Source: Escherichia coli 042
GTDB lineage: Bacteria > Pseudomonadota > Gammaproteobacteria > Enterobacterales > Enterobacteriaceae
Strand: one strand, 5' to 3'
NCBI RefSeq assembly: GCF_000027125.1
Contig: NC_017626.1
DNA length: 64,000 bases
How positions within the stretch are numbered: the first letter of the stretch is position 1; every line of letters begins with the position of its first letter. Below the pieces are notes generated by a model, which saw nothing but the letters and a program-made list of their open reading frames with translations, made no database searches and was not told where the DNA came from. The position numbers and the translations under genes are program-made. Positions 8,484-16,987 of the stretch are shown here, one piece after another.

Positions 8484-9984
<1,501 letters not shown>

Positions 9985-10033
9985 TTAGTGGCGATCAGGC
10001 TTTTTTTGCATCTGTTTGAGAACAAAAAAGAAA

Positions 10034-10096
10034 ACCGCCGATCCTGTCCACCGCATTACTGCAAGGTAGTGGACAAGACCGGCGGTCTTACGTTTT
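10034..10096 (-). terminator. Hairpin terminator downstream of spy
   Basis: Long imperfect inverted repeat (AAACCGCCGATCCTGTCCAC ... GTGGACAAGACCGGCGGTCTT) flanked by A-rich (plus) and T-rich sequence; lies just past the spy stop. Confidence 0.55.
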
Positions 10097-10108
10097 TTGG
10101 CTGAAAGA

Positions 10109-10594
10109 TTATTCAGCAGTTGCAGGCATTTTACCTTTTGCCGCTGGACGTTCTGTCAGACGCTTCTCAAAATTAGCATTAAATTGCTTTTTCTGTTCCG
10201 GCGTCAGGATGTTGTAAATCTTGTTCTGGGTTTCCATGTGCGCCAGCATGTTAGCTTTGCGCTGTTCTTCCATTTTTGCGATCTGCGCTTCAGCTTTTGC
10301 TTTATCGAAGGTATCGCTGGCAATGATGTCATGCATTGCGCGGCGTTCTTCCAGCGGCGGACGTTTCATCTGGTCACGCTGGCCTTTCATGATTTCGCGG
10401 ATCTGCTGTTTCTGCGCGTCGGTCAGGTTCAGGTCTTTGAACATCATGTCCTGATGCGGACCGAACTTGCCTTTGTGGTGCATCATCGGCTTCGCGTCAG
10501 CCGGTGCTGCGGTAGTGGTGTCTGCGGCATGGGCCAGGTTAGCCGCGCCAAGAGCCAGGGTAGAGGCAACAAACAGTGCAGTTAATTTACGCAT
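10109..10594 (-). CDS. spy: Periplasmic ATP-independent chaperone Spy
   Basis: 161 aa ORF with signal peptide and charged helical body rich in K/E/Q. Confidence 0.95.
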   Translation of the reverse strand: MRKLTALFVASTLALGAANLAHAADTTTAAPADAKPMMHHKGKFGPHQDMMFKDLNLTDAQKQQIREIMKGQRDQMKRPPLEERRAMHDIIASDTFDKAKAEAQIAKMEEQRKANMLAHMETQNKIYNILTPEQKKQFNANFEKRLTERPAAKGKMPATAE

Positions 10595-10699
10595 ATTCTA
10601 TATCCTTCCTTTCAGTTATTTATTACGGCTTTCTTAAGAAGCGTGCCGTGTTGACGAGATTAACTTTACTGACTTTAGCGTCAATTAATCAGAGCAACG

Positions 10700-10720
10700 G
10701 TAAAACAATGAAAGTGTAAA
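10700..10720. promoter_or_regulatory. Candidate CpxR site in the spy promoter
   Basis: GTAAA-ACAAT-GAAAG-T-GTAAA, an imperfect match to the CpxR tandem GTAAA-N5-GTAAA consensus, about 110 bp upstream of the spy start. Confidence 0.3.
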
Positions 10721-10732
10721 AAACACTTTTGC

Positions 10733-10750
10733 GCCAATTATGGAGAAAAA
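10733..10750 (-). promoter_or_regulatory. BaeR box in the spy promoter
   Basis: Plus strand GCCAATTATGGAGAAAAA; reverse complement TTTTTCTCCATAATTGGC matches the recalled BaeR box consensus TTTTTCTCCATDATTGGC exactly. Confidence 0.6.
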
Positions 10751-10923
10751 AAGAAAATTTGATGGAGAGTGATGAGAAAATATTACAACACGATGATTTT
10801 GCAGAGATTATGAAGAACTATACCGGATGACTGGTGATAAATAAAGCAAATAACCAGGATTAATCTGTATTAATTTATAAGAAAGTAACTTAATACCCGC
10901 AGAATGATTTCTGCGGGTAAGTA

Positions 10924-16987
<6,064 letters not shown>

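Follow-up and report, generated by a model that had tools for sequence, protein, structure and literature searches.

The E. coli gene spy is preceded by what is very probably an activator-dependent promoter, at which CpxR would act on a pair of tandem pentamers at positions 10700..10714 and BaeR, independently of CpxR, on boxes of the TCTNCANAA type. These sites are located in the spy-astE intergenic region of a 64-kb stretch of the E. coli chromosome, which is referred to here as the window and whose coordinates are used throughout unless those of MG1655 are named.

Spy ranks among the periplasmic chaperones with the strongest induction, and reporters of the Bae and Cpx envelope-stress pathways are widely built on the spy promoter. 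Exact knowledge of the boxes that are used matters for the design of such reporters and of biosensors. The E. coli spy promoter has reportedly been described by Raffa & Raivio 2002, Nishino et al. 2005 and Yamamoto et al. 2008, the last of which (J Biotechnol 133:196) is said to be the footprinting paper for this promoter. The dual regulation and the published BaeR box were already known, and the observation is confirmed and its interpretation supported by the present analysis; since the regulation of spy has been known since 2000-2008, the finding in itself adds nothing new. Mildly new are the very strong conservation of the CpxR-type element, which is specific to its half-sites and extends to GAAAG, the presence of extra BaeR boxes with a ChIP-exo signal on the distal repeat, and the splitting of the promoter by IS1 in strain ECE170.

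The genetic dependence of spy on both regulators has been shown in the literature. A spy::lacZ fusion requires both BaeR and CpxR, and spy is up about 75-fold on overproduction of BaeR and about 40-fold on overproduction of CpxR; the two regulators are independent at spy, whereas the action of CpxR at mdtA and acrD is reported to be BaeR-dependent (PMC2731931). Under ethanol, the log2 fold change of spy is -5.76 when baeR is knocked out and -3.04 when cpxR is (PMC7657598 supplement). Chlorite no longer induces spy in a baeR mutant and does so less strongly in a cpxR mutant (PMC12503329). Lower spy mRNA was likewise found in a Salmonella cpxR mutant (PMC7889517), and RegulonDB includes spy among the CpxR targets. 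The dual two-component control of spy that was put forward in the original prediction is supported by this published BaeR- and CpxR-dependent expression.

The spy locus, its neighbours and the core promoter

The spy gene is carried on the minus strand, and both motifs are located 106-156 bp upstream of its start codon. The 371-bp segment 10560-10930 has matches in 5423 of the 5426 complete E. coli genomes, with 95-100% identity and with annotated spy and astE as the features beneath, and the 57-bp stretch that spans both sites is identical in 5179 of these 5426 genomes. The window is collinear, without indels, with MG1655 1825001-1826100, where spy is b1743, so that an MG1655 coordinate is converted into a window coordinate by subtracting 1815031. 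MG1655 and the window strain differ in the intergenic region by single substitutions only, at 10639, 10778 and 10886, none of which falls within the boxes. The coordinates of the features discussed here are collected in Table 1.

Table 1. Features of the spy locus and its upstream region (window coordinates)
Feature	Position	Strand	Remarks
spy CDS	10109..10594	-	161-aa ORF; periplasmic ATP-independent chaperone Spy; annotated in E. coli genomes
Sigma-70 core promoter (inferred)	10657..10684	-	-35 TTGACG at 10684..10679; 16-bp spacer; weak -10 TAATCT at 10662..10657
CpxR-type box GTAAA-ACAAT-GAAAG (GTAAAACAATGAAAG)	10700..10714	+	Gene-strand reading CTTTC-ATTGT-TTTAC
Third GTAAA pentamer	10716..10720	+	Not in 10-bp phase with the two other pentamers; inside the conserved block 10699..10725
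Published 18-bp BaeR box TTTTTCTCCATAATTGGC	10733..10750	-	Exact match; contains the 9-bp BaeR box TCTCCATAA at 10746..10738
BaeR-box-like TCTCCATCA	10760..10768	-	1 mismatch to TCTNCANAA; weak candidate
Distal direct repeat TCTTCATAA-tc-TCTGCAAAA	10797..10816	-	Two exact BaeR boxes, 11-bp period
Hairpin ACCCGCAGAA-atca-TTCTGCGGGT	10895..10918	-	Read from the sequence; directly after the astE stop

The hairpin at 10895..10918 is presumed to be the terminator of the upstream ast operon and, if so, would bound the spy regulatory region; it was not detected by the terminator scan, in which a T-run is required. Downstream of spy, on the other side of the gene, the minus strand has a long hairpin rich in G+C (AAGACCGCCGGTCTTGTCCAC ... 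GTGGACAGGATCGGCGGTTTT, 10022..10089) with a T-run after it, presumably the spy terminator; on the plus strand, too, a T-run follows this hairpin. The convergent genes cho (plus strand, end 9371) and ves (minus strand, end 9331) overlap at their 3' ends by 41 bp (9331..9371), and the overlap is annotated likewise in strain ECE170. An Rfam scan of 9900..11000 at E <= 1 returned only two chance matches to microRNA families, far under the thresholds, and therefore no known RNA element is present in this segment.

Conservation of the region was examined with 80 spy loci fetched from the Enterobacteriaceae (Escherichia, Citrobacter, Salmonella, Enterobacter, Klebsiella, Raoultella, Kosakonia, Cedecea, Buttiauxella and others), for which the 260 bp upstream of the start codon were aligned; these represent 79 distinct sequences. 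The 71 non-Escherichia sequences have a mean identity to E. coli of 0.69 over the non-coding part, and in the phylogenetic footprint of the 79 upstream regions 10655..10753 stands out as a strongly conserved stretch.

A promoter and terminator consensus scan of 10560..10960 found nothing, and the assignment of the spy promoter was therefore based on the invariant TTGACG and the conserved TAATCT. The former is present in 70 of the 71 non-Escherichia species and is replaced by TTGACA in the remaining one. The stretch CGTCAACACGGCA, which follows the -10 element, is also conserved, and transcription of spy is predicted from the sequence to start near 10650. The absence of a strong consensus promoter fits an activator-dependent promoter with a weak -10. 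The putative 5' UTR past CGTCAACACGGCA is variable and is partly deleted in many genera. It includes a near-palindrome, GCTTCTTAAGAAAGC (10628..10642, minus strand), in a part that most other genera lack or have in variable form, and at position 10639 within this near-palindrome the window strain is unlike MG1655 and most other Escherichia.

The CpxR-type element

An imperfect GTAAA-N5-GAAAG element of the CpxR type, as had been proposed from the sequence, is present upstream of the core promoter, on the strand opposite to spy, and is conserved in 79 of 79 sequences. Its centre is about -57 from the predicted start. Comparison with the published CpxR consensus, GTAAA-N5-GTAAA, gives 8 of 10 matching positions and 2 mismatches, and the window as a whole has 74 matches to this consensus with 2 mismatches vs 59 +/- 7 in shuffled sequences, which is not above chance. 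The pattern match is thus at chance, but the conservation of the element argues that it is real.

An alignment-free check detected CTT[TG]C-N5-TTTAC in all the 79 distinct Enterobacteriaceae spy upstream regions, with 21 of the 79 sequences varying in the 5-bp spacer and only 2 in a pentamer. Among the non-Escherichia species, TTTAC is kept in all 71 and CTTTC in 69, and the distance between the element and TTGACG is 15 bp in 73 sequences and 16 bp in 6. With a conservation score of 0.97, the element is the most conserved 15-bp segment upstream of spy (rank 1 of 246), above even the first 30 coding bases of the gene (0.91), and its comparative value is that no other part of the promoter is as constrained across the Enterobacteriaceae. 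Half-sites under constraint, with a spacer free to vary and a constant phasing, would be expected of a protein-binding site composed of two half-sites. The GAAAG half-site is itself conserved and therefore does not represent a decayed GTAAA. The block 10725..10699, in which the element is embedded, has a mean conservation of 0.94, and the third pentamer within it is retained, as TTTAC, in 49 of the 71 non-Escherichia species.

The published CpxR ChIP-exo data (PMC7657598 Data Set S2) include no CpxR peak at spy, and the gene is filed there as an indirect target. This absence, though a cpxR knockout lowers spy 8-fold, is what would be expected if CpxR acted on spy indirectly and if 10699..10725 were bound by some other factor, for example RNA polymerase alpha on an A/T-rich UP-like element, or another regulator; the 8/10 match at chance frequency and a published remark that the CpxR box poorly predicts the extent of CpxR regulation point the same way. 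An indirect action is nevertheless improbable. The data set contains only 13 CpxR peaks, of which the one at cpxP does not coincide with the known box, and the negative result at spy is therefore weak. Furthermore, invariant pentamers, a variable 5-bp spacer and a fixed helical phasing to the -35 element make up the pattern of a two-half-site protein-binding site, and the element copies the CpxR box of cpxP in both orientation and spacer. The increase of spy by ~40-fold on CpxR overproduction, which is independent of BaeR, and the RegulonDB entry also speak against an indirect action. From these observations we infer a direct contact of CpxR at 10700..10714.

A second CpxR-like match, GCTAAAGTCAGTAAA (10665..10679, minus strand; 2 mismatches), sits on the gene strand in the spacer between the -35 and -10 elements. 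It was considered as an activating site and rejected, its upstream half being poorly conserved. The GTAAAG part is conserved, and the match could conceivably have a repressive or auxiliary role.

BaeR boxes and the occupancy of the promoter by BaeR

The exact reverse-strand BaeR box that the original prediction had placed upstream of spy was recovered as TTTTTCTCCATAATTGGC, which is the sole such site in the 64-kb window even at <=3 mismatches (0.10 expected). The 18-mer is on the spy strand, 139-156 bp upstream of the ATG and about -83 to -100 from the predicted start. The predicted interval, 10700-10750, brackets this box and the CpxR-type element exactly and misses the BaeR boxes at 10760..10768 and 10797..10816.

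The published 18-bp consensus, TTTTTCTCCATDATTGGC, which is quoted from Nishino et al. 2005 in PMC11644481, is matched exactly upstream of spy on the gene strand. With D = A, however, the consensus is identical to the sequence of spy itself; the exactness of the match is therefore largely by construction, and it identifies the locus and does not constitute independent evidence. A second BaeR consensus, TCTNCANAA, from Yamamoto et al. 2008 as quoted in PMC3799227, is fitted by TCTCCATAA, the core of the 18-mer. An exact TCTNCANAA occurs at the proximal position in 55 of the 79 upstream sequences, and the common variants of the proximal box, TCTTCATAA and TCTCCACAA, deviate only at degenerate positions. 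The mean conservation of the 18-mer, 0.81 vs a background of 0.69, is moderate. On the basis of these sequence comparisons, we conclude that the proximal BaeR box is genuinely under constraint. The adjacent GGCGCAAAA (10727..10735), considered as a weak partner that would complete a tandem with the proximal BaeR box, was rejected, as in most species it deviates from TCTNCANAA at 3-5 positions.

The published 18-mer is just a part of a larger set of BaeR boxes at spy. Three exact TCTNCANAA boxes occur inside 80 bp on the spy strand, at 10738..10746, 10797..10805 and 10808..10816; in the whole window, TCTNCANAA has 11 matches vs 8.5 expected. The two distal boxes form the repeat TCTTCATAAtcTCTGCAAAA, ~50 bp upstream of the 18-mer and about -147 to -166 from the predicted start. 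An exact box is present at the first position of this repeat in 34 of the 79 sequences and at the second in 8, and its conservation, when based on identity, is merely at the background level. Between the proximal and distal boxes, TCTCCATCA lies exactly 22 bp, or two helical turns, upstream of the proximal TCTCCATAA, with only its TCTCC part conserved.

Two BaeR ChIP-exo peaks have been published upstream of spy by Choudhary et al. (PMC7657598 Data Set S2), and these show that BaeR occupies the spy promoter in vivo. Mapped onto the window, peak_1 covers 10646..10680, that is, the core promoter, and peak_2 (MG1655 1825823-1825843; signal/noise 9.25) covers 10792..10812, that is, the distal repeat, while no BaeR peak in this data set overlaps the 18-mer at 10733..10750. 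The same data were calibrated at two other promoters. Of the peaks at mdtA, one coincides precisely with the BaeR boxes and one with the core promoter. The CpxR peak at cpxP, however, falls on the core promoter and is displaced by 17 bp from the known CpxR box, so that the resolution and sensitivity of this data set are limited. With the mdtA peak on its boxes but the cpxP peak displaced, the position of a peak is suggestive and not decisive. In E. coli, BaeR probably has a further site in the distal repeat, and the assignment of its contacts to particular boxes is a prediction.

These peaks also bear on the possibility that BaeR mainly uses the distal repeat in vivo, the 18-mer being auxiliary or unbound. 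The repeat is the only perfect tandem pair of TCTNCANAA boxes, its 11-bp period being the arrangement expected for a dimer of the OmpR/PhoB family, and it, and not the 18-mer, is covered by a ChIP-exo peak in a data set in which positioning can be accurate, since the mdtA peak falls exactly on BaeR boxes. Such a primacy of the distal repeat is, however, unlikely. The proximal box is far better conserved (the exact 9-mer in 55/79 sequences vs 34/79 and 8/79 for the distal boxes, whose identity equals the background), a simple activator would not be expected to bind as far upstream as about -150, and the displaced cpxP peak means that peak position does not decide the matter. Moreover, it is the extended 18-mer, and not the distal arrangement, that mdtA and acrD share with spy. 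The reading in which BaeR acts through the proximal box, with the distal repeat as a probable addition, is therefore preferred.

That both motif matches are due to chance and have no regulatory role could be argued from the CpxR-type match being no commoner than in shuffled sequence and from the circularity of the exact BaeR match, whose consensus was derived from the spy locus. This can be given almost no credence, as it is refuted by the conservation over 71 non-Escherichia species, the BaeR ChIP-exo signal and the large effects of the knockouts on expression.

A natural truncation of the spy promoter is found in one strain, E. coli ECE170 (NZ_CP196906.1), in which IS1 is located between the CpxR-type element and the BaeR box (breakpoint 10731/10732). 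The CpxR-type element is kept and all the BaeR boxes are lost, and J-domain and Hsp70-family genes are present in place of the ast operon side.

Proposed mechanism and comparison with the cpxP, mdtA and acrD promoters

The spy promoter would be an activator-dependent sigma-70 promoter with a -35 close to the consensus (TTGACG), a weak -10 (TAATCT) and a start near 10650, upstream of whose core two response regulators of the OmpR/PhoB family would bind. Phosphorylated CpxR would occupy the tandem pentamers GTAAA-N5-GAAAG (10700..10714), a site near -57 whose orientation is opposite to that of spy, just as at cpxP, and phosphorylated BaeR would occupy TCTNCANAA-type boxes, the proximal one in the 18-mer and probably the distal repeat at 10797..10816 too. 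Each of the two is envisaged as independently aiding RNA polymerase at the weak promoter, the step involved being presumably the recruitment of the polymerase, so that either envelope-stress pathway could induce the chaperone.

More speculatively, BaeR may use an array of several sites at spy, unlike the usual single 18-mer, composed of the distal repeat near -150 with its ChIP-exo signal, the middle box and the proximal box; separately, the CpxR box of spy, including GAAAG, may be the counterpart of the cpxP box, inherited since the duplication that gave rise to spy and cpxP. That both of these suggestions hold together is rather doubtful, and they are offered tentatively.

The E. coli spy promoter of the literature is the same locus, and nothing of substance is different in the window strain. 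The closest parallel to its CpxR-type element is the cpxP box CTTTACGTTGTTTTAC (CTTTAC-GTTGT-TTTAC; MG1655 4105725-4105740), whose orientation the spy box shares. Both boxes are composed of tandem pentamers with the GTAAA reading on the strand opposite the gene, both have a near-identical spacer (ATTGT in spy vs GTTGT in cpxP), and both lie upstream of a TGACG -35-like element. They differ in the promoter-distal pentamer, which is GAAAG in spy and GTAAA in cpxP, and in their distance from TGACG, the spy box being ~10 bp, or one helical turn, further away (16 vs 6 intervening bases). Spy and CpxP are paralogues, and the resemblance between the boxes may therefore reflect common descent or common constraint. 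To our knowledge, cpxP is not regulated by BaeR.

With respect to BaeR, the promoters of mdtA (mdtABCD-baeSR) and acrD share with spy the extended box TTTTTCTCC-N-T-N-ATTGGC, the mdtA box TTTTTCTCCCTTATTGGC and the acrD box TTTTTCTCCACGATTGGC being one position each off the spy 18-mer. At mdtA, CTNCA cores recur every 10-11 bp and the boxes lie directly against the core promoter, whereas the boxes of spy are further upstream, with the CpxR-type element between them and the core promoter.
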